From the NCBI GenBank assembly GCA_965227295.1, contig OZ245742.1, positions 96,001 through 160,000 on the forward strand: a stretch of 64,000 nt of DNA. The letters are read 5' to 3'. Each line of letters opens with the position of its first letter. The first letter of the stretch is position 1. This document shows positions 1 through 9,542 of the stretch, in pieces. This stretch comes from Leptonemataceae bacterium. Lineage in GTDB: Bacteria; Spirochaetota; Leptospiria; Leptospirales; Leptonemataceae. Below the pieces are notes generated by a model, which searched no databases, was not told the DNA's origin, and saw only the letters and a program-made list of their open reading frames with translations. Position numbers and translations under genes: made by a program.

Positions 1-685
1 TCAGCGCAACCTGTCGCGGTCGGCCCTGCAATTGCTACAACGCATCGAACGGCCCTCGGTCATCGCCGGACTGAGCCGTGAGGCTTTCCTCGAATACGCA
101 GAGGGATGCCGATTCAACGGCGCCCGCAAACTTGCGATCTATGAACGTTTAGTAGAGCATACGATTGTCGAAGAGCCCGGCGATATAGAGGAACGCGTGC
201 TGGAGATGCAGCACCTGGTGCAGATGATGATACTCCACGACATGCAGCTCCAGCAATTACAGGAGTCCATTGATGCCCTCTACGACTCCCATCCCATGGC
301 CGGCGTGTTTGATTCGATTCCGGGCGTGGCCGGAGACCTGCGCGTTCGCCTGCTGACGGCATTCGGCGACAATCTCAATCGTTTCCGGGACCATCGTGCT
401 GTGCAGGCGTTCGCCGGAACCGCGCCGATCACGATTCGTAGCGGCAAGCGCGAAGTCGTAACCATGCGCACCGGCTGCAACAAGGCGTTCCGGGATACGC
501 TCTACCAGCTCGCGTTCACGACGATGGGTCGCCTGCCGTGGGCGCGGGCCCATTACAATCGCCAGAAGGCCGCCGGCAAATCGCACTCAGCAGCACTGCG
601 CTCCCTCTCGAACAAATGGGTCCCGATCCTGTTTTCCATGTGGCGCGCGAGCGAAATCTACAGCGAAGACCGGCGGGCCGCATGA
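1..685 (+). mobile_element. IS110 family transposase, C-terminal part (5' end outside window)
   Basis: ORF 32..685 shows IS110/Transposase_20 hallmarks: SIPGV helix-hairpin, AFAGTAPITIRSGK (catalytic Ser region), GCNKAFRDTLY, YNRQKAAGKSHSAALRSLSNK. The N-terminal DEDD domain is not in the window. Confidence 0.9.
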
Positions 686-725
686 CCACCGCGTCGGAAT
701 TTTCTTGACGCGGCGACATAGTGAG
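686..725 (+). promoter_or_regulatory. IS110 right end with outward -35 box (TTGAC 705-709) and CATAG terminal motif
   Basis: Sequence cttgacgcggcgacatag lies just after the transposase stop. The hairpin ccgcgtc(689-695)/gacgcgg(707-713) overlaps it. Confidence 0.5.
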
Positions 726-750
726 CCCTCACGCGAAGAGTTGTAACATC

Positions 751-1446
751 ATGAAAATCATCCAGACTGTATTCCTCTTAATGTTTGCAGTAGGCCTCCC
801 GGGCTGCGGCGAGGATGCTCCGCCGTTTCGTCCCGAGGTCGCCGGTTTTTCCGAGCCTCGCGCCGGCATGTTGCCTTACTTCCAGGGCCGCGACATGAAT
901 CCCTACTGGCCGCCGGAAGACGCGGAGACACTGCCGGAAGACCTGCGGCGGCCGGCGAACTTCACGTTGCTCAGTCACAACGATGCAAAGTTTACTCCGG
1001 ATGATCTTAACGAAAAGTACACGATTCTGAACTTCTTTTTTACGCGCTGCCCGGGCATCTGTCCGCTGATCACCCGCAACGTGAAAAAGGTCTCGGCGCA
1101 GATTCCGAACCAGGCCGATCTTCAGTTCGTTTCGATTTCGGTCACGCCGGAATACGATCGCCCGCCGGAGATGCGCCAGTACCGCGAGGAACACCGCGTC
1201 TCCCAGGCAAACTGGCTCATGCTCACCGGCGAACGCGAACCCATCTACGAAATGGCGCGACTACAGTTCGGCGCCGACGTGCGCACCGACGTCGAAGAAT
1301 TCACGAGTCCCGAGGACTTCGTGCATACGGAGAACGTGTATCTACTGGATCGGCAGGGTTATTTGCGCGGGGTGTATCGCGCACGGGGCATGGGCGACCT
1401 GGAGCGATTGGTGCAGGAGCTGGAGGTTTTGCGGGGGAGTGAATGA
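751..1446 (+). CDS. SCO1/SenC family copper chaperone lipoprotein
   Basis: FFFTRCPGICP (CxxxC), ISVTPEYD, HTENVYLLDRQG motifs; lipobox LPGC. Confidence 0.92.
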   Translation: MKIIQTVFLLMFAVGLPGCGEDAPPFRPEVAGFSEPRAGMLPYFQGRDMNPYWPPEDAETLPEDLRRPANFTLLSHNDAKFTPDDLNEKYTILNFFFTRCPGICPLITRNVKKVSAQIPNQADLQFVSISVTPEYDRPPEMRQYREEHRVSQANWLMLTGEREPIYEMARLQFGADVRTDVEEFTSPEDFVHTENVYLLDRQGYLRGVYRARGMGDLERLVQELEVLRGSE

Positions 1447-1490
1447 TTCAAAAAGAGTGAGCATCCTCCAGCAGAGTTTTCCCGGCATCG

Positions 1491-1829
1491 CTATGAAACC
1501 ACGGACTTGCGTATCTCCGGTGAAAGGCTCTCGTTCCTCGTAGCAACACGGGGCCCGGGTTCGAACGCAAACACCAAGTCAACCTCCTCCGGAACGCGCC
1601 CAACAGGATAAACTGTGACGATAGAAGTCGGAATTGCGTCTATCACATGCGCACGCTGGGAATCAATAATGATACTACAGCTGCCGATCCAATCATTCAC
1701 GACGGACTTAACGGAGTCCTGGCTCGATGCAAGAAAGGGTGCAAGCATTACGGCCATACCGGCGGCAATTCGCCTCCCAGAAAATGCACCGAGAATCTGC
1801 TCTAGGATATTTTTTTGATTGCTATTCAC
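1491..1829 (-). CDS. hypothetical protein, possibly a truncated remnant, divergent from the 1875-6316 cassette
   Basis: 112-aa ORF with a hydrophobic stretch in the AT-richer region; no recognisable motif. Confidence 0.3.
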   Translation of the reverse strand: MNSNQKNILEQILGAFSGRRIAAGMAVMLAPFLASSQDSVKSVVNDWIGSCSIIIDSQRAHVIDAIPTSIVTVYPVGRVPEEVDLVFAFEPGPRVATRNESLSPEIRKSVVS

Positions 1830-1874
1830 AAGAAACTAGTGCCTAGAATGTTAAACTAGATCCGGAGCACTTGC

Positions 1875-4800
1875 ATGAGGCGCCACCCTAAAGCTAAAGC
1901 GACACTTCTGTCAATAATCATCTGCCTGGCAGGATTACAGCCCAACACGCTCCAGGCACAGGCACCGACCAGCCATGAAATCAATCACGAATGGACTAAT
2001 TTTCGAGCGGCGTATCCTTATCATGTACAAGTAATTGCCGTGAAAGAACGTCTTGCAGACGGCAGCTCACTCTTTATCCTCTCGGAGCCGCCACCTCACG
2101 TTACTCTGGATGGCTTGAAGCAAAGCGCCGGAGTAGAGCTCAGCAACCTCAACGTGCTGGACCATCGCATCGGGTACGATGGATTTCTCCGAGATATTGT
2201 CTTTACGGCAAGACCAGGGACGGGCAACAGCCTGACCACGTTCGTCAGTCGCCTTTCTATATACCTCTATGGCACATCTTACAAAGCAACATTTACCTCC
2301 CTCCCGATCAAGAATCAACAGAGAGGAAACGAACAGTTAGACCTCAGGATCTCGACGTTTGACCTAAAGCAGTGGTCAATTGATAGCAGCGAAAAGTTTG
2401 AACCTGTATTAGGTGGCCGCGCCAGCCCTGTGCAGACACTCCTGCAAGATCCTCGCCCCGGGGTATACCGGAGCGGGAAACCCGGCCTGATTCTCTGGGT
2501 AGTACCTCGAAATGCCAGGCTCGATCAGTATACGCAGGAAATTCGCCAATTCACGCTGGATTCCGATATCGTACTTGGTGCCATAGGAGGGAATCAGGCC
2601 ACTCTCATAGTCGGCCGCGAACGGGTCGCAGCCCTCGAAACTTTGCCTCCGCTGCGAACGGAAACTATCCTGCTGCTGGCGGCGGCGACCTCAAATGAAC
2701 TCGCGCAAAGCTACGAGCGAAACCACTTACTTTCCGGGAAGACAAGGGATGGGAACGATTGGGCACCAATCTACCTCAGCCCCGATTTGATCAATACGGA
2801 ATACGGCAGTCTGCTCAATATCACGGATCAGCTATTAAAGGGTTGGTCCATGAACGGCACAGTGCGATATATCAACTTCGACTACCCGCCCCCGAACACT
2901 GGCTGGCCTTTCCCGAAGCCCCTATCCCAATTGATCAAGGGTTCCAGTGTAACTTTCAACTGGAATACAAAGGGCGTCGGTTATACTGTGGAAGATGGTT
3001 CATATGCGTATTTTGCGCTCAATCGAACCGGCTCACTGCCGATGACTTACATCGCAGAGGAATCCGGCTCTTCTGAATATGATAAGCAAGGCTATGAGTA
3101 TTTTGCGACCCTCAGCGATCCCAATCTCGTGCGCGTAGTTCAGTATGCGGCGCTCTATCAGATATTCCGCCAATTCGATCTAAAGGCCGATACGCCCGGC
3201 ATTATGGGCAGGGGCGCACGGCGCTATCGAGACGCAAACGCTGCACTTGTTCAATCGACCAAGAACGCGCTCATTAAGATTCGCAATGCCAATGAACAGA
3301 TGCTGAAGCAAACGGCGAAGGAAATGGCGGCGGATGACCGTGCGATCCCGGACGACTTAATGCCGCACGTACTGAAGCCGCTTCTGATTTACGTCGGCAT
3401 GGAACAGTTGCGAGCGGAACATCCTGGCGCCACGGAAGAACAACTCTTTGCGACCGTTTCCGCAGCCGTCGACCAGTTATCAGCCGGGCAACTGAAGGAA
3501 ATGAGCGACGAATTGAATGAAAAGATGACCAAAGAACAGCAGCAAGAGCTACGCATGGCGTTCGTCGCGACTATGCTGCAAGCCTCTGTGAACTCTCTTC
3601 AGGAAAAGCTCAATCACCTACCTGGGCCTCTGTGGCCCGACGTAGCAGAAGATCTGGCACGAAACCTGATTAATCCCCGTGAAGAGATCGACACAACCCG
3701 GCTTCAGAAAGTCGCCGAAAGTGAGGACGCATCCGGCTTAGACCATGATACGATGGTCGATTTTGTAGCCGTGTGGATCTTGAACGAACCTTCAAGCCGC
3801 ATCATCGGCACTTTCGCAGATATCGACCGCGCCAAAGCAACATACGTAAAATACGGCCGGTCCGCTGAACAACCTGGATTCATCGTCACCCCGTCGATCG
3901 TCCAGTCCCGTGTAGACGCGAGCATGGCGGGCGCAGTCGGCGGACACAATCTGGATTCGGCAATCACCCGTTTTCGTCCCAGCACGCAAATTAGACGCGG
4001 TTCAGTGAAAATCACGGGCTCGAAGGAAGCCCCGGTCATACTATTCCATCCCGGCGACGCAAAAAAAGTTCAGGCACTTGTGGAGACCGCTGGCAAGCAG
4101 TCCACGGACCCGAATCTGGCCACAAACTTGCAACAAACGCTTAAAAACGCGCCAGTTGTAGGATTGAAACGAGAAGAAGCCCTGGCGCTTGCCGGACGAC
4201 CGGACCGATCGCGCGGGCTCCAGCATCCGAGCCTTGTCAAACTTGGTGACGACATGATTTCCGCTCCCGGGTGGAAACTTGACGTAACGTCACTAAATTC
4301 AGAGGACCGAAACCTGATCAAGGCGATGAACACTTCGTACAATCCAGCGATCGTCGTCCGGAAGAGCAAAGGTGGTACATACGAGGTATTGATGCCGAAC
4401 ACGGATGCAACGATCCGTGTAGGGAATGTCGTGGACCTCTCCGACGCTCTATCGTACACAATTTTCAGGGACACGGACGGCACACGCCCGCTTCACCTTT
4501 CGACAATCGGTTTTTCGGAAGATGAGACCCGCGCGCTCGCTCATACTACGAGCCTACGATTGGAAGCCGCCCGTGACCGCCGAAACGCGAGCGCGTTCTT
4601 CAGCAAATTCGACGAACACATGCCTCCAGGCAAGCAGGCTTCGCCGCGTGCTTTCATAGAAGGCCGGTTCGACTTCGCACACCTGGAAATTTCGAAGCCG
4701 GTCAAGAGTCAGGTCATCTCCACCGGGCCGCGTAGCGGTCAGTACAGTGTCGATGTAGTCGCCAAAATTCCCATCAGCCACGCCGGGAACTCCACACCCT

Positions 4801-5066
4801 TCCAGGTGCAGATTGCGGTCTTCTTCAAGAACGTAGTTTCCAATAGCATTGTAGAGAAAATTCAGACTCTGATTCGGCAGACTTTCAGTAGAGCCGCCGC
4901 ACAGAAGCTTTCCAACGACGCTACCATGCAGGCCCTGGAGACAGACTTACGGCAGGCTGGCCTCGACGCGGAAATCAGGGCCCAGGGAGAGCAATTCGAT
5001 TCCTTCTTCGTTCGGTTCAAACAGGTTGAGCATGAGTCTAGCAACTACGCTTACGCGTCCCGATAA
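1875..5066 (+). CDS. large exported hypothetical protein (1063 aa)
   Basis: Long ORF with Sec-type N-terminus (MRRHPKAKATLLSIIICLAGLQPNTLQAQA), a globular N-half, a central helical region and a globular C-part. No family recognised. Confidence 0.85.
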   Translation: MRRHPKAKATLLSIIICLAGLQPNTLQAQAPTSHEINHEWTNFRAAYPYHVQVIAVKERLADGSSLFILSEPPPHVTLDGLKQSAGVELSNLNVLDHRIGYDGFLRDIVFTARPGTGNSLTTFVSRLSIYLYGTSYKATFTSLPIKNQQRGNEQLDLRISTFDLKQWSIDSSEKFEPVLGGRASPVQTLLQDPRPGVYRSGKPGLILWVVPRNARLDQYTQEIRQFTLDSDIVLGAIGGNQATLIVGRERVAALETLPPLRTETILLLAAATSNELAQSYERNHLLSGKTRDGNDWAPIYLSPDLINTEYGSLLNITDQLLKGWSMNGTVRYINFDYPPPNTGWPFPKPLSQLIKGSSVTFNWNTKGVGYTVEDGSYAYFALNRTGSLPMTYIAEESGSSEYDKQGYEYFATLSDPNLVRVVQYAALYQIFRQFDLKADTPGIMGRGARRYRDANAALVQSTKNALIKIRNANEQMLKQTAKEMAADDRAIPDDLMPHVLKPLLIYVGMEQLRAEHPGATEEQLFATVSAAVDQLSAGQLKEMSDELNEKMTKEQQQELRMAFVATMLQASVNSLQEKLNHLPGPLWPDVAEDLARNLINPREEIDTTRLQKVAESEDASGLDHDTMVDFVAVWILNEPSSRIIGTFADIDRAKATYVKYGRSAEQPGFIVTPSIVQSRVDASMAGAVGGHNLDSAITRFRPSTQIRRGSVKITGSKEAPVILFHPGDAKKVQALVETAGKQSTDPNLATNLQQTLKNAPVVGLKREEALALAGRPDRSRGLQHPSLVKLGDDMISAPGWKLDVTSLNSEDRNLIKAMNTSYNPAIVVRKSKGGTYEVLMPNTDATIRVGNVVDLSDALSYTIFRDTDGTRPLHLSTIGFSEDETRALAHTTSLRLEAARDRRNASAFFSKFDEHMPPGKQASPRAFIEGRFDFAHLEISKPVKSQVISTGPRSGQYSVDVVAKIPISHAGNSTPFQVQIAVFFKNVVSNSIVEKIQTLIRQTFSRAAAQKLSNDATMQALETDLRQAGLDAEIRAQGEQFDSFFVRFKQVEHESSNYAYASR

Positions 5067-6021
5067 GATCCTCATCGCCTGCGCGATACCTTTTACGCGA
5101 GATCAATTTTTTAAAGATCTACACCCAGGAAGCATACGGGATTTCGCAAAGCACATCGATCGCGTCTCGAATTATGAAGGCGAGGATCTCTGGAACTACT
5201 ATTACGATTCGACGTTGAGCAAGGTTGAGAACGTGCTGTCGGAAGCCGAACAAAAAGGAGTAACCGTCCTACGAAGCGTCAGTCGCGGAGACCTGGCGCA
5301 CATTTTCGATGCGCATGACGTGGTAGTCTTTCTGACCCACTTCAAAGGAGCGAGCTTTATCCCCGATGACTTTCACGATCCGGAGAGGTTTGCCTCCCGT
5401 CTCGCGGAGGTTCAGGACCCGGTCTGCCGAAAAATACGAGCAGGAATCGTTACGAGTCGTCTCACGCAGTTGAAGGCCAAGGCCGCGCGAACGAAGTTTG
5501 CGGACGAACTTACGAAACTCTGTGCACGCGAAGCTATCTTTCTGGAGATCGAGCCGCATCTACCCGAACAAAACTTCACAGACAACCTCCTTTACCTGAA
5601 TCGGATCGCACTGGAACGCCATTTCGTCGGCGAACTCCGACCCGGAGGCGTCGTGGACCTCTCGGACGGCGCCTGCGCTCCTCTTGAATTCGCACAAAAC
5701 CTTCCCGTAGCAAAGCCGGGCATCCTCGATCTGACAATCTGCGAGTCGTATATATTGGGGCAGGCAATCAAGGGTCATCATCCAGGCACTTTGGTCTTGG
5801 TGAATGAGAAACCTGCGACCATCGTGTACAGAATGATTTTCTTTAAGCACTTGCTAGACGAACTTTCAAAAAGAGGCGCGAACTATGCACTGCGGCACTT
5901 AGAAATGCGAAAAGAACTAACACGGAGGATCAACCTTGAAAAGTCTGGATTCTTTGCTTCGAGAATACTCAAGTGGATCGGTAACTGCTGGCGGCGGTGG
6001 ACCACGAAAGTCTCTAAGTGA
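5032..6021 (+). CDS. putative CHAT/caspase-like (clan CD) protease-domain protein
   Basis: DVVVFLTHFKG (His codon 5338-5340), GVVDLSDG and ILDLTICES (Cys codon 5740-5742) follow the CHAT pattern H..H-G / l.dg / LsaCes. Overlaps the upstream ORF. Confidence 0.6.
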   Translation: MSLATTLTRPDKILIACAIPFTRDQFFKDLHPGSIRDFAKHIDRVSNYEGEDLWNYYYDSTLSKVENVLSEAEQKGVTVLRSVSRGDLAHIFDAHDVVVFLTHFKGASFIPDDFHDPERFASRLAEVQDPVCRKIRAGIVTSRLTQLKAKAARTKFADELTKLCAREAIFLEIEPHLPEQNFTDNLLYLNRIALERHFVGELRPGGVVDLSDGACAPLEFAQNLPVAKPGILDLTICESYILGQAIKGHHPGTLVLVNEKPATIVYRMIFFKHLLDELSKRGANYALRHLEMRKELTRRINLEKSGFFASRILKWIGNCWRRWTTKVSK

Positions 6022-6316
6022 CTTTGCCGAAGAAGTCCGAAAGAGCAAACGCGCCAATGCCTTAAGATATTACGTCCTCCTCGGGCTGTTCACTGTAGTG
6101 CTCATCGGGCTGGTCATATTTGTGGCCATTACTGGTTCCAATCCGCATCAACTGGCCATAACGGGTGGTACCGGCGGGATTGGAATCGGCGTGGTATTGC
6201 GATACATATTGAAACTGAATACCGAGCTAACAAACTACGATACGCTACTCACGCTTTCCCTGAAAACGTCTGACAGCACCCTGCAAAGTGTCATTGACAA
6301 CCTGTCAAAAAAATAA
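5936..6316 (+). CDS. small two-transmembrane-helix protein
   Basis: TTG start with GGAGG at 5924-5928; two hydrophobic segments (YYVLLGLFTVVLIGLVIFVAI; LAITGGTGGIGIGVVLRYIL) and a C-terminal helix. Confidence 0.75.
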   Translation: MKSLDSLLREYSSGSVTAGGGGPRKSLSDFAEEVRKSKRANALRYYVLLGLFTVVLIGLVIFVAITGSNPHQLAITGGTGGIGIGVVLRYILKLNTELTNYDTLLTLSLKTSDSTLQSVIDNLSKK

Positions 6317-6327
6317 ACATGTGCCCC

Positions 6328-7599
6328 TCACCCCGCCCAGATCACCACCAACGCCTGCAACCAGCCCACAAACGCGCCCAGCACGCCGCCGACGAGGATC
6401 AGCAGCCACTCATCCTCACGAAAGGCCCCGCGCAGAATCTCTTCGAATTCGTTCGGCGGCAGCGCATTTAAGCGCTCGCGCATCGTAGCTTCCACTGCTA
6501 AACTATCAGCAAGATACGGCTTAAGCAACACATAGGCCTCCGGGGCGAGTTCGGCAATGCGGCGCACGGCGTGTTCACGGATGCGGTGATACTCCTCCGG
6601 GCCGGCGGTCAGTCGGATCATCGGCTTCGCCACGCCGGCGAAACGATCCACGCTTTCGTGGACACAGCTCTCTACGATTTCGAACACGCGCTCCTTACCG
6701 TTGCCGCGATACAGCTCCTGTAAGACCCGGCGGCTGTTCAGAATTTTTTCGGCGGTGAAGTGCGCCATCTCACGGGAGACATCCGGCTGGCGTTTGAGAA
6801 ACATGCCCTGCCATTCAACGTCGCCGAAGCGCCGCGGTTCCAGCGGGCGAAAGATCATGCGAATGGCCAGCCAGTTCGTGGCGAAACCGACGAAGGCGCC
6901 GGCCAGGGGCAGGGTCCACCAGGCCGGAAACAAAAGCCACAACACGATTTGCAGCGCGCCGAAGACGCAGCCGAAGTAAAAGCCTGCGGTTTCAATGAAC
7001 TTCAACTCCGGGCTGCCCACGCGTTCGAAGAGGTCCACCATGTTGCGGACCCGCGGCCCGGTGAGTCCGCGGTAAACGACGTCACCCACGTGAAAGACGT
7101 CATCGAGTTCTTTTTTGATCTTACGAACGATTTCCTCAAACGCGCGCATACTTTCTTTGCGAGCCTGGGCGATCATCGCTTCCTGAACGGTCGGCGGCGT
7201 GAGCACGCGAATGAGCGGATGCATGTGATCCATAACCGTGCGAATCAACGCGGGAATTTCACGATCCAGCAGCGGGCCAAGGAGTTCGCCGACAGTGCGT
7301 CCGTTCACGTTCGCGGCCAGCTCACGAAAACTCAGAAGCCGGCCGGTGATCAGCTCCACCGATCGTTCGGCCATCTTACGCGCCTTGCGCGGGATGATGC
7401 CCTGCCAGCCCAGGTACGGCGGAATGCCGACAAACTTTACGGGATAGAAAGTCATGCGCAGAGCGACCACGTTCGTCAACCAGCCGGCGAAGCCGTAGGT
7501 CAGCGGCATGAGCAAAAGCGCCAGGATATAAACCGAAGTCGTCACGCGGAGCACCGACGTTCGTTTTTCTGCGAACTTTCGTAAACAGTTTTTCTCCAA
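6328..7599 (-). CDS. DUF445 family membrane protein
   Basis: Two repeats of GW.TN.lAlrM.F.P...G...WQG.; C-terminal FREDEWLLILVGGVLG. Start codon uncertain. Confidence 0.88.
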   Translation of the reverse strand: MEKNCLRKFAEKRTSVLRVTTSVYILALLLMPLTYGFAGWLTNVVALRMTFYPVKFVGIPPYLGWQGIIPRKARKMAERSVELITGRLLSFRELAANVNGRTVGELLGPLLDREIPALIRTVMDHMHPLIRVLTPPTVQEAMIAQARKESMRAFEEIVRKIKKELDDVFHVGDVVYRGLTGPRVRNMVDLFERVGSPELKFIETAGFYFGCVFGALQIVLWLLFPAWWTLPLAGAFVGFATNWLAIRMIFRPLEPRRFGDVEWQGMFLKRQPDVSREMAHFTAEKILNSRRVLQELYRGNGKERVFEIVESCVHESVDRFAGVAKPMIRLTAGPEEYHRIREHAVRRIAELAPEAYVLLKPYLADSLAVEATMRERLNALPPNEFEEILRGAFREDEWLLILVGGVLGAFVGWLQALVVIWAG

Positions 7600-7667
7600 A
7601 TCAAGGCGGCCTTTCTCTTGCGCATCTTTGGAACGCGCTTAAGTTTTGCCCGAGGAGAGTCATTCCC

Positions 7668-9542
7668 ATGGTATACATTCAAAGCACCGGAACCTTTCTC
7701 CCCGGCGAACCCGTGGACAACGCGACTATGGAAGCGCGCCTCGGTACCATCGGCGGCAAGGCCTCGCGTCTCAAAGAACGCATCCTCAAACAAAACGGCA
7801 TCCGCACCCGTCACTACGCCATTGCCGGCGACAATCAAACTTCGCAGTACCGCAATTCCGAGATGGCGGCCCATGCCATTCGCAACGCCCTGTCCCAATC
7901 CACCGTGGGCCTGGAAGACATCCAGTACCTCTCCGTGGCCACGTCTCAGGGCGACCTGCCCCTGCCCGGCTTCGCGTCGATGGTCCACGGCGAGTTGGGT
8001 AATCCCTCGTGCGAGATTTCCACATCCCACGGTATTTGCGCGAGCGGCATGGCCGCACTGAAGAACGCCTTCGTGCAAATCAAGGCCGGAGAGAAAAGCA
8101 ACGCCGTCGTATGCGCCAGCGAATTTGCGAGCCGTCTGTTGAAAGGATCGCGCTACGAACACCAGGCAGCGTATCGCCAAAGCGGCAAGATTCCTTTCGA
8201 TACCGAGTTTCTGCGCTGGATGTTATCCGACGGTGCCGGCGCCTTCGTACTCACCGACCGGCCGGCGGAGCGCGGGCTTTCGATTAAGATTGATTGGCTG
8301 GAACTTAAAAGTTACGCCGACCGCCACGAAGTCTGCATGTTCATCGGCGGCAACAAGAACGGCACCGGCCGGGTGGAGAAATCCTGGCTCGATTACGCGA
8401 GCTACCAGGAATCCGTGGACGACGGTTCCATGAATCTCAAGCAGGATGTGCGCATTCTCGACAACGTGGTCCGCGTGGGCGTGGACTTCTTCTTTGAGCT
8501 GATCGAAGCCGGGCGTATGCAGCCGTCGGAGCTGGACTGGATTGCCTGCCACTATTCCTCGCACGTCTTTCGCGGTAAGATCTTCGAACTGCTGGCAAAA
8601 GGCGGCGTGCACATTCCCGAAGAACGCTGGTTCTCGAATCTATACACGAAAGGCAACACCGGTTCCGCTTCGATCTTCATCATGCTCGACGAACTCTTTC
8701 GCTCCGGCAGGCTGCGGCCGGGACAGAAGATCCTGGCCATGGTTCCCGAGAGCGGGCGCTTCATCGCCTCGTACATGTTGCTCACCGTCGTCGACGGCAA
8801 TCAGGCGGCGCGCGCAACCACCAGTGGCGTAACGATCCCGGAACCGGCGGCGCCGCGGTTGAACGTGAAGAACGGCGACGCGATCGTCGAATCCCTGGTG
8901 CGCCGACTCACGCGGGTGTGGATCGACTTCGAAAGCCGTCTGAATCAAACGCCCATCGTCGCGAAGCTAAATACCGGTAACTTTACGTTAGAAGATTACC
9001 GACGCCTGCTCTTCAACATGCGCCAACAGGTGATGGAGGGCGCACGCTGGATCGCCCGGGCGGCGTCCGGCATTACCATCGAGGCGTTTCCATTACGATC
9101 GCTGTTCATCGCCCACGCCGGCGACGAGCACCGGGACTATCAAATGCTGGAACGCAACTACGTCGCCGCCGGCGGCCGCCGGGAAGACATCGTCGCCGGT
9201 GAAAAGAACATCGGCTCCGAGGCGCTCTCCGCCTGGATGTTTCATCGCGCGAGCCGCGAGAACCCGTTTGATTTGCTCGGGGCGATGTTCATCATCGAGG
9301 GTCTGGGCACGCGCATGGCCCATCGCTGGGGAACGATGATCCGCGATCAGCTCGGCCTGGACGATGAGGCGGTCTCGTTTTTATTGTACCACGGCGCGAA
9401 CGACGAAAATCACTTCGAACGATTGGAAGAAGCCCTGGACTCCGGGCTGCTGTCCGAAGCACTGGCCGACCAGATCGTAAAGACGGCTAAAGTTACGGCA
9501 AGATTATATTTGCTGCAACTGGAAGAGCTGGATAATGTTTAA
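7668..9542 (+). CDS. StlD/DarB-type KAS III ketosynthase fused to heme-oxygenase-like (TenA/PqqC fold) iron-redox domain
   Basis: N-part: HGICASG (Cys), HYSSH, GNTGSAS, FLRWMLSDGAGA, VPESGRF. C-part: QQVMEG, HAGDEH, FIIEG, YHGANDENH metal-ligand-type motifs. Confidence 0.85.
   Translation: MVYIQSTGTFLPGEPVDNATMEARLGTIGGKASRLKERILKQNGIRTRHYAIAGDNQTSQYRNSEMAAHAIRNALSQSTVGLEDIQYLSVATSQGDLPLPGFASMVHGELGNPSCEISTSHGICASGMAALKNAFVQIKAGEKSNAVVCASEFASRLLKGSRYEHQAAYRQSGKIPFDTEFLRWMLSDGAGAFVLTDRPAERGLSIKIDWLELKSYADRHEVCMFIGGNKNGTGRVEKSWLDYASYQESVDDGSMNLKQDVRILDNVVRVGVDFFFELIEAGRMQPSELDWIACHYSSHVFRGKIFELLAKGGVHIPEERWFSNLYTKGNTGSASIFIMLDELFRSGRLRPGQKILAMVPESGRFIASYMLLTVVDGNQAARATTSGVTIPEPAAPRLNVKNGDAIVESLVRRLTRVWIDFESRLNQTPIVAKLNTGNFTLEDYRRLLFNMRQQVMEGARWIARAASGITIEAFPLRSLFIAHAGDEHRDYQMLERNYVAAGGRREDIVAGEKNIGSEALSAWMFHRASRENPFDLLGAMFIIEGLGTRMAHRWGTMIRDQLGLDDEAVSFLLYHGANDENHFERLEEALDSGLLSEALADQIVKTAKVTARLYLLQLEELDNV

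Follow-up and report, generated by a model that had tools for sequence, protein, structure and literature searches.

A widespread three-gene cassette from a Leptonemataceae bacterium as a candidate membrane-spanning conflict system

Immune systems gated by a CHAT or other clan-CD protease include the type III-E CRISPR Craspase (Csx29-Csx30) and the bacterial gasdermins with their caspase-like protease. In clan CD, the His precedes the Cys in the chain, and each stands at the end of a strand. Small transmembrane effectors are known from cyclic oligonucleotide-based anti-phage signalling systems (CBASS), Thoeris and Pycsar, and class II holins are small membrane proteins as well. To our knowledge, almost all characterised anti-phage systems detect infection inside the cytoplasm, and the detection of attack at the bacterial envelope is largely an open question. 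A caspase-like effector, ThsE, is reported for type IV Thoeris (10.64898/2025.12.03.692087). DdvA is a transmembrane TPR-CHAT anti-sigma factor that links phage defence to a periplasmic domain of very large size and to a zinc domain in the cytoplasm (PMC11506125). We analysed a stretch of 64,000 nucleotides of a Leptonemataceae bacterium (GenBank assembly GCA_965227295.1, contig OZ245742.1, positions 96,001 to 160,000 of the forward strand), hereafter the window, which carries a cassette of three genes, g1, g2 and g3, that bears on this question. With a probability of about 0.5, the cassette is a horizontally acquired operon of a widespread and undescribed conflict system that spans the membrane, most likely an abortive-infection or anti-phage system.

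The three open reading frames (ORFs) lie on the forward strand. g1 (1875-5066) encodes 1063 aa from an ATG start, g2 (5032-6021) encodes 329 aa from ATG 5032, or 331 aa from an alternative TTG at 5026, and g3 (5936-6316) encodes 126 aa from a TTG start. With the starts at ATG 5032 and TTG 5936, g1 and g2 overlap by 35 nt and g2 and g3 by 86 nt, as given in a preliminary description made from the sequence alone. A Shine-Dalgarno sequence, GGAGGA (5924-5929, + strand), is located inside g2, 6 nt ahead of the g3 TTG, which coincides in the alignment with the initiator Met of the g3 family N-terminus. Upstream of the g2 ATG, an AGG is present at 6 nt. The 86-nt overlap is due to a tail of about 30 residues on the window g2, which is modelled with low confidence and extends beyond the end of most of the 26 homologues displayed in the alignment; in related loci (longest ORF per locus), g2 and g3 mostly abut or have a short overlap, six loci for instance having one of 4 nt. 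In composition, the block is foreign. Its GC content (0.536, 0.514 and 0.480 for g1, g2 and g3) is lower than that of the neighbouring genes (0.585-0.605), as is the GC content at third codon positions (0.60, 0.58 and 0.50, versus 0.73-0.79). The AT-richer block near an IS110 element that the preliminary description had remarked is therefore real; the element is a C-terminal fragment of the transposase (2-685), and a SCO1/SenC gene lies between it and the block.

These are not chance reading frames, because at least 380 relatives of g1 (about 1000 aa; among 7,998 candidates scored) and 470 cluster representatives related to g2 were obtained at E<=1e-3. The g2 relatives, 207 of which reached E<=1e-10 and which are mostly about 300 aa long, came from a full HMMER search of 1.84 billion representatives. 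They overturn the view of g2 as an orphan, for which the basis was a word-indexed search that returned the window's own protein only; given the HMMER result, this null reflects a sensitivity limit. Related loci were collected by scanning species-representative genomes with a g1 profile, and their six-frame ORFs were searched with iterated profiles. The resulting 59 loci span more than 10 phyla (Acidobacteriota, Bacteroidota, Myxococcota, Cyanobacteria, Pseudomonadota, Planctomycetota, Verrucomicrobia, Gemmatimonadota and others), named carriers being Sorangium cellulosum So ce26 (Myxococcota), Paraburkholderia and Caballeronia (both Pseudomonadota). Downstream sequence of 1 kb or more was available for 53 loci, and in 48 of these the gene immediately after g1, on the same strand, is a g2 homologue. 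The five others are L018, L030 and L038, where only proteins rich in transmembrane segments follow g1, the fragmented L052, and L050, which is considered below. Where there was room for a third gene, a g3 homologue came right after g2 in 32 of 45 loci; the remaining 13 comprise ten with a long g2 (at least 500 aa) and no g3, one g2-g3 fusion (L053) and two misfits, L026, whose g3-like ORF runs in the opposite direction, and L036, without g3. No fourth conserved gene emerged from all-versus-all clustering of 732 locus ORFs, the next commonest flank family being present in five loci. The trio, proposed as a unit in the preliminary description, is a real conserved operon, self-contained and set in variable surroundings. 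Together with the foreign composition, these two properties argue for horizontal mobility. Searches of PHROGs, NCBIfam, Pfam and PADLOC-DB v2.0.0 assigned no family to g1, g2 or g3; in PADLOC-DB, where novelty had been proposed for checking, zero families were matched at E<=0.1.

g1 is the constant member of the cassette, and its bulk is predicted to be extracytoplasmic, with a signal peptide or an N-terminal anchor holding it at the membrane. Residues 1-30 (1875-1964, + strand) form a basic N-terminus followed by a hydrophobic segment, which may be either of these. The signal peptide recognised in the preliminary description is thus matched by a feature of the family: a basic-then-hydrophobic N-terminus just ahead of a conserved W..FR..YPYH motif was present in 106 of 120 g1 homologues, some of which carry a lipobox-like LLSGCG. 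In nine loci (L037, L038, L039, L043, L045, L051, L054, L057 and L058), the conserved motif is instead preceded by an extension of 90-165 residues containing two to four CxxC pairs and then a transmembrane helix. All nine come from gut or rumen metagenome-assembled genomes of Bacteroidales type, and none has a g3 homologue. At least some g1 forms are thus predicted to be type-II anchored, with a zinc-ribbon-like domain in the cytoplasm. It is from the signal-like N-termini and the membrane-anchored variants that the extracytoplasmic location of g1 is deduced.

An AlphaFold2 model of g1, built with 119 sequences, reached a predicted local distance difference test (pLDDT) score of 86.6 and a predicted template-modelling score (pTM) of 0.87. 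Its most conserved part is an alpha/beta domain (residues 33-440; 1971-3194, + strand) with dozens of invariant polar residues and a mean identity of 0.46 between the window protein and 118 homologues. An all-helical, hypervariable region follows (residues 444-661; 3204-3857, + strand; mean identity 0.09, occupancy 0.59), then a conserved beta-rich domain (residues 670-775; 3882-4199, + strand) with invariant T672, G689, G690 and H691 in a GGHNLD motif, and finally weakly conserved alpha/beta domains at the C-terminus (residues 800-1047; 4272-5015, + strand; identity 0.16, occupancy 0.89). Foldseek comparison of the model with the PDB gave no hit at E<=1e-3, the best E value being 0.02 at a template-modelling (TM) score of 0.07. 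PDB-profile and Pfam-profile searches returned blanks or noise, and the ESM Atlas offered no usable match. The fold of g1 is likely to be new, judging from the model, likely rather than proven because a whole-chain search with a multi-domain model is insensitive. Foldseek rows pointing to actin-like proteins, TolR and LptE were not significant and were dismissed. The name DUF3160, attached in UniRef to one g1 homologue (P0092), was not reproduced by Pfam on that protein.

g2 is predicted to be a cytoplasmic protein with an invariant His-Cys pair. Across 78 aligned homologues, the only invariant residues were P20, H103 and C237, while C13, F26, R191, E209, D212, G230, D233, S239 and L278 were near-invariant. 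The AlphaFold2 model (pLDDT 92.2) is alpha/beta. His103 (codon CAC, 5338-5340, + strand), conserved in 78/78, lies two residues past strand 97-101, and Cys237 (codon TGC, 5740-5742, + strand), also 78/78, lies in the last turn of strand 231-238 and is followed by helix 240-249. The succession of elements is strand-His, hairpin, helix, strand-Cys, helix, strand, helix. Both in sequence order and in modelled secondary structure, the pair follows the clan-CD arrangement, His then Cys, each at the C-terminal end of a strand. A helical insertion of about 90 residues (approximately residues 110-200) separates the two, and is absent from naturally short forms of g2 of about 200 aa. Of the CHAT-like His and Cys motifs noticed in the preliminary description, the pair itself thus stands, as two invariant residues in clan-CD order; recognition of the CHAT family or fold does not.

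A weak similarity to CHAT nevertheless recurred in profile comparisons. We assembled an alignment of 18 short CHAT domains, 17 of them with PF12770, for which the protein after g1 in L050 served as seed. Aligned to it with hhalign, the short-form g2 profile scored 18.9 (P 0.054, 93 columns, probability about 1%), a borderline value that was reached by 8 of 200 column-shuffled CHAT templates. In this alignment, the two strand-His elements coincide, the conserved E-x-x-D-G hairpin falls on the CHAT hairpin and the two strand-Cys elements coincide, after which the register continues through helix, strand and helix. When a set of 750 proteins was searched, a CHAT protein was the best non-family match of both g2 hidden Markov models (HMMs; E 0.21 and 0.57), and with the short-form HMM, CHAT proteins took five of the top 12 non-family places, in the same His/Cys register. 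The 18 aligned CHAT sequences are related to each other and count as one family, and the CHAT matches of the HMM search, being one family, count as one observation. The clusters nearest to g2 in the ESM Atlas were unnamed, a CHAT cluster first appearing at rank 28 with a score of 0.87. L050 (Phaeodactylibacter) provides a different kind of indication: this locus lacks g2, and the ORF beginning 3 nt after g1 encodes a Pfam CHAT protein (E 6.9e-8).

Several results weigh against a protease, and hence against the conflict-system reading, in addition to the borderline score and the relatedness of the CHAT sequences. The caspase fold expected in the preliminary description was not recognisable by Foldseek in the g2 model. 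Searches of the PDB and of BFVD each gave no hit at E<=1e-3, although the 90-residue insertion may reduce their sensitivity. The top PDB rows were alpha/beta hydrolases at a TM score of 0.22, and no clan-CD structure was among the best 50. Pfam CHAT (PF12770) matched one of 78 long g2 forms (E 0.05) and none of 17 short forms, and the window g2 itself matched neither PF12770 nor Peptidase_C14 in the Pfam scan. PDB sequence profiles gave only noise with long and short forms alike, and hhalign of the g2 alignment to two single CHAT proteins gave nothing. At residue 13 (5068-5070), the window g2 moreover has Ile instead of the Cys seen in 72 of 78 homologues, and at residue 209 (5656-5658) it has Asp instead of the Glu seen in 73 of 78; it retains H103, C237 and most of the near-invariant residues. 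Taking both sides together, we put the odds that g2 is a diverged cysteine protease of clan-CD type somewhat above even, on sequence and predicted structure. Two proteins met in these searches deserve description. The CHAT protein of L050 (11681-13369, + strand) has 562 aa, an N-terminal short CHAT domain and an uncharacterised C-terminal part of 390 aa, and stands in place of both g2 and g3; TIR, STAND NTPase and TPR domains are frequent fusion partners of the family to which its CHAT domain belongs. BFVD entry A0A8S5MXG5, an uncharacterised 320-aa protein of Myoviridae sp. ctWaE18, aligned to the g2 model with discordant scores (probability 0.99, TM score 0.37, E 0.096; root-mean-square deviation 5.4 over 298 columns), and may be a phage protein with a g2-like fold.

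The third gene encodes what is predicted to be a small membrane hairpin with its N-terminus in the cytoplasm. The g3 family shares a common plan: an N-terminal amphipathic segment (M-K-x-L-x-x-x-L-x-x-Y), a near-invariant Gly, a helix, a strongly hydrophobic transmembrane segment and a short Pro loop. The plan continues with a less hydrophobic Gly-rich stretch that contains the invariant G81, and closes with an L-W-R-E-K-like motif and a C-terminal helix. In the window protein, the near-invariant Gly is G19, within AGGGG (residues 18-22); the strong transmembrane segment covers residues 45-65 and the weaker Gly-rich one residues 72-92. Fusions of g3 onto the C-terminus of g2 were found in at least five cases, namely L053 and, among 149 listed g2 representatives, P0230, P0155, P0166 and P0255. 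These fusions, together with the basic residues ahead of the first transmembrane segment, place the g3 N-terminus in the cytoplasm. The analogy with gasdermins drawn in the preliminary description is a loose one: g3 is not a gasdermin, having only 126 aa, built-in hydrophobic segments and no Pfam match.

The ten loci with a long g2 are of Bacteroidales type and have no g3; their g2, of the short-core type, is extended by about 300 residues. All seven long g2 forms tested carry a C-terminal DUF4062 domain (PF13271; E 1e-15 to 1e-20), and these long forms have no transmembrane segment. The domain was absent from g1, g2 and g3 of the window in the Pfam scan. Preprints of 2026 report DUF4062 to be a TIR-like NADase, that is, an enzyme depleting nicotinamide adenine dinucleotide (NAD+), which acts as anti-phage effector in Swarozyc (10.64898/2026.05.01.722283), NIR/Vulcan/Vesta (10.64898/2026.09.04.749371) and Evangelion (10.64898/2026.06.25.731849). 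g3 thus behaves like an interchangeable effector, swapped for a DUF4062 NADase domain in some lineages and fused to g2 in others, in keeping with the effector role first proposed for it. A membrane protein and an NADase sharing the slot after g2, or joined to g2, is the modular-effector pattern typical of conflict systems.

On this basis we propose the following course of events. g1 would sense an event at the envelope, either phage adsorption or injection or envelope damage, and the signal would cross the membrane through the g1 anchor (or the zinc ribbon), through g3, or through both. g2, as a highly diverged CHAT/caspase-like cysteine protease, would then cut g3 near its conserved N-terminal helix and Gly linker, or cut the junction between g2 and the effector; this proteolytic step is one that we infer. 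Once freed, g3 would permeabilise the membrane or DUF4062 would deplete NAD+, and the cell would be killed or arrested. More tentatively, the cassette might represent a new class of outside-in innate immune receptor, in which an ectodomain of about 1,000 aa with a fold not seen before perceives phage attack or some other assault on the envelope, ahead of or during the entry of the genome, and passes a signal to a cryptic, extremely diverged caspase/CHAT-like protease and from there to a membrane-disrupting hairpin or a TIR-like NADase.

The surroundings of the related loci were searched for defence genes, 129 of the 309 flank ORFs within 3.5 kb being scanned with Pfam and 105 ORFs with PADLOC. 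Nine TIR_2 proteins in six loci were detected with Pfam. In five loci, the TIR_2 gene is directly upstream of a cassette of the Bacteroidales variant (L039:6161-7597, L045:6691-7617, L047:7390-7743, L051:45-929 and L057:6785-7549), and L039 and L057 have additional TIR genes on the downstream side; the TIR_2 protein may be a lineage-specific fourth component of this variant. The other Pfam matches were CHAT (L047), RyR (L046, L055), WYL (L049), PLD (L005), an integrase (L056) and IS110 (L016); gasdermin was not matched by any of the 129 ORFs. PADLOC matches included PDC-S27 (2e-196, L013), a ZorD/DpdE-like helicase (L022), HNH/PDC-M68A (L048) and SIR2-HEAT (L053). As a sign of a defence role, these flank genes are suggestive only. 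A Slo-like RCK domain is found in proteins of roughly 690 aa that recur beside the Bacteroidales cassettes of L045, L046 and L047 (for example L045:4701-6767 and L046:12957-15020), and small RyR-domain proteins flank such cassettes at L046:12554-12931 and L055:7436-7729; the Bacteroidales loci with these flanks look like conflict islands. In L051, g2-DUF4062 is at 933-2705 and g1 at 2680-4743. The gene order of this locus appears to be permuted, with g2-DUF4062 upstream of g1, unless two cassettes stand in tandem at a contig end.

Around the block in the window itself, we found no convincing boundary repeats or insertion ends, and the window contains no second copy of the cassette. An Rfam scan of positions 1-8000 revealed no element. 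Promoter and terminator scanning gave no excess over shuffled sequence, and the roughly 430 bp ahead of g1 contain no convincing match to sigma-70. An ORF of 112 aa on the reverse strand (1491-1829), located within the AT-richer block on the upstream side of g1, belongs to no family and has no homologue in the 59 loci; it is doubtful, and possibly not a gene. Further downstream, at 7668-9542 (+ strand), a ketosynthase of the StlD/DarB family (NCBIfam E 3e-129, residues 2-375) is fused to a haem-oxygenase-like domain annotated as 'iron-containing redox enzyme' (Pfam PF14518, residues 493-614).

Beyond the doubts about the g2 fold, a number of observations fit the conflict-system reading poorly. 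One concerns g1. Its N-domain, with an identity of 0.46, is the best-conserved part of the whole cassette, and such conservation is more readily expected of an enzyme, or of a protein that binds a conserved structure of the envelope, than of a phage sensor under rapid evolution. Another concerns g3, which the preliminary description had taken for a protein with two transmembrane segments joined to an AGGGG linker: the linker and one strong segment were found as described, while the second segment is weak (Kyte-Doolittle value 1.41) and the topology uncertain. Finally, the window neighbours of the cassette (SCO1, DUF445, DarB-like and AgcS) are non-defence genes, and most flanks outside the Bacteroidales loci are ordinary metabolic genes; the PADLOC matches amounted to 16 of 105 flank ORFs, several of them to generic domains. 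These points could be accommodated by a module acting on the envelope, in which g1 is an extracytoplasmic enzyme, for example a lytic or envelope-modifying one, that itself does the damage or the work, g3, with its two segments and cytoplasmic N-terminus, a holin-like protein or an anchor and g2 a cytoplasmic regulator or enzyme, the result being programmed lysis or remodelling. Its main argument is the enzyme-like pattern of dozens of invariant polar residues in the conserved g1 N-domain; the small size of g3 and its two hydrophobic segments, one strong and the other weak, would suit it, as would the many loci, the window included, that lie amid housekeeping genes. We nonetheless consider it unlikely. 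Searches of g1 with Pfam, PDB profiles and Foldseek revealed neither a hydrolase fold nor that of any other enzyme. The replacement of g3 by a cytoplasmic NADase fused to g2 points instead to a cytoplasmic killing effector downstream of g2, and the invariant His-Cys pair indicates that g2 is probably catalytic itself.

Slightly less probable still is a transmembrane signalling or stress module without immune function. Here g2 would not be a protease but a thiol enzyme or an adaptor, held at the membrane by g3 and linked to g1 as its extracytoplasmic partner, and the NADase fusion would be a lineage-specific co-option. That Pfam, PDB profiles and Foldseek gave no positive recognition of a protease fold in g2 is as this explanation would have it, and so is the lack of a matching PADLOC model. 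A tblastn search with g1 against plasmid and phage collections gave no match, which also counts against the conflict-system reading; the cassette is chromosomal and absent from the collections searched. However, the foreign composition, the patchy spread over more than 10 phyla and the variable flanks suggest the mobility typical of conflict systems, and a purely signalling module accounts poorly for the swap to a DUF4062 partner, for the genuine CHAT protein at the g2 position in L050, and for the TIR, SIR2, WYL and PDC neighbours in a subset of loci. It is very improbable that g1 is a secreted polymorphic toxin or bacteriocin, with g3 as membrane immunity protein and g2 as maturation or immunity factor, as its large size, signal peptide, conserved N-terminus, less conserved C-terminal third and the gene for a small membrane protein downstream might suggest, because the g1 C-terminus is alignable without cassette-like swapping (118 homologues, occupancy 0.89, near-invariant positions), Pfam finds no toxin domain in g1, g2 has invariant residues of catalytic type unlike immunity proteins, several g1 forms are clearly membrane-anchored with cytoplasmic zinc ribbons, and an NADase fused to g2 would hit the producer itself.

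If the conflict-system reading holds, the cassette would offer a testable model of transmembrane immune signalling, by virtue of its architecture of a conserved ectodomain, a cytoplasmic His-Cys enzyme, interchangeable effectors and natural fusions. It is widespread, with at least 380 g1 homologues and 470 g2 representatives in more than 10 phyla, its range taking in Acidobacteriota of soil as well as Bacteroidales of the gut, and all three proteins are without a family name, a solved relative or an entry in a defence database. Confirmation of g2 as a protease would add to the caspase/CHAT clan a form that escapes present-day HMM and fold searches. Should the function not be immune, the cassette would still define a large unexplored envelope-associated family, with two confident models whose folds are likely to be novel.

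A literature search found no description of the cassette, proteins without a family not being searchable by name. With the protease-gated systems (Craspase, ThsE, gasdermin) it shares a cytoplasmic enzyme with His-then-Cys order beside a killing effector, a modular effector that is either membrane-active or NAD+-depleting, and the weak profile similarity of g2 to CHAT with the catalytic residues in register, to which the CHAT protein at the g2 position in one locus may be added. It differs from them in that neither CHAT nor Peptidase_C14 of Pfam matches g2 and Foldseek finds no counterpart for it. The core of the cassette has no TPR, CRISPR, TIR signal generator or gasdermin, and its upstream partner, g1, is an extracytoplasmic protein of about 1,000 aa without a recognised fold. 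The DUF4062 (NIR) systems Swarozyc, Evangelion, Vulcan and Vesta, as far as the accessible text of their preprints goes, share the effector domain with the Bacteroidales relatives (7/7 tested), whereas the window cassette has no DUF4062, and no partner resembling g1 or g2 is mentioned in that text.

The small transmembrane effectors of CBASS, Thoeris and Pycsar and the class II holins resemble g3 in being membrane proteins of one or two segments, encoded last in the operon and interchangeable with an enzymatic effector. g3, in contrast, has no ligand-binding domain and no Pfam family, and it is set apart by a conserved cytoplasmic N-terminal helix with a Gly linker and by its recurrent fusion to g2.

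The resemblance to DdvA concerns the membrane-spanning arrangement: a very large extracytoplasmic domain with a proposed role in sensing a signal associated with phage, a single-pass anchor with a cytoplasmic zinc-binding N-terminal domain, as in the nine CxxC-extended g1 forms, and His-Cys chemistry proposed within the signal relay. However, the CHAT domain of DdvA is periplasmic and part of the sensor, whereas the His-Cys protein of the cassette, g2, is cytoplasmic and separate. The g1 ectodomain contains no TPR-CHAT or other known fold, and where DdvA releases a sigma factor, the output of the cassette would be a membrane protein or an NADase. The cassette is a demonstrated member of none of the systems compared; it resembles the protease-gated modules and DdvA in logic. 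Placed among them, it is best described as a candidate modular conflict system, and that the proposed outside-in sensing sets it apart as a new kind is a real possibility.

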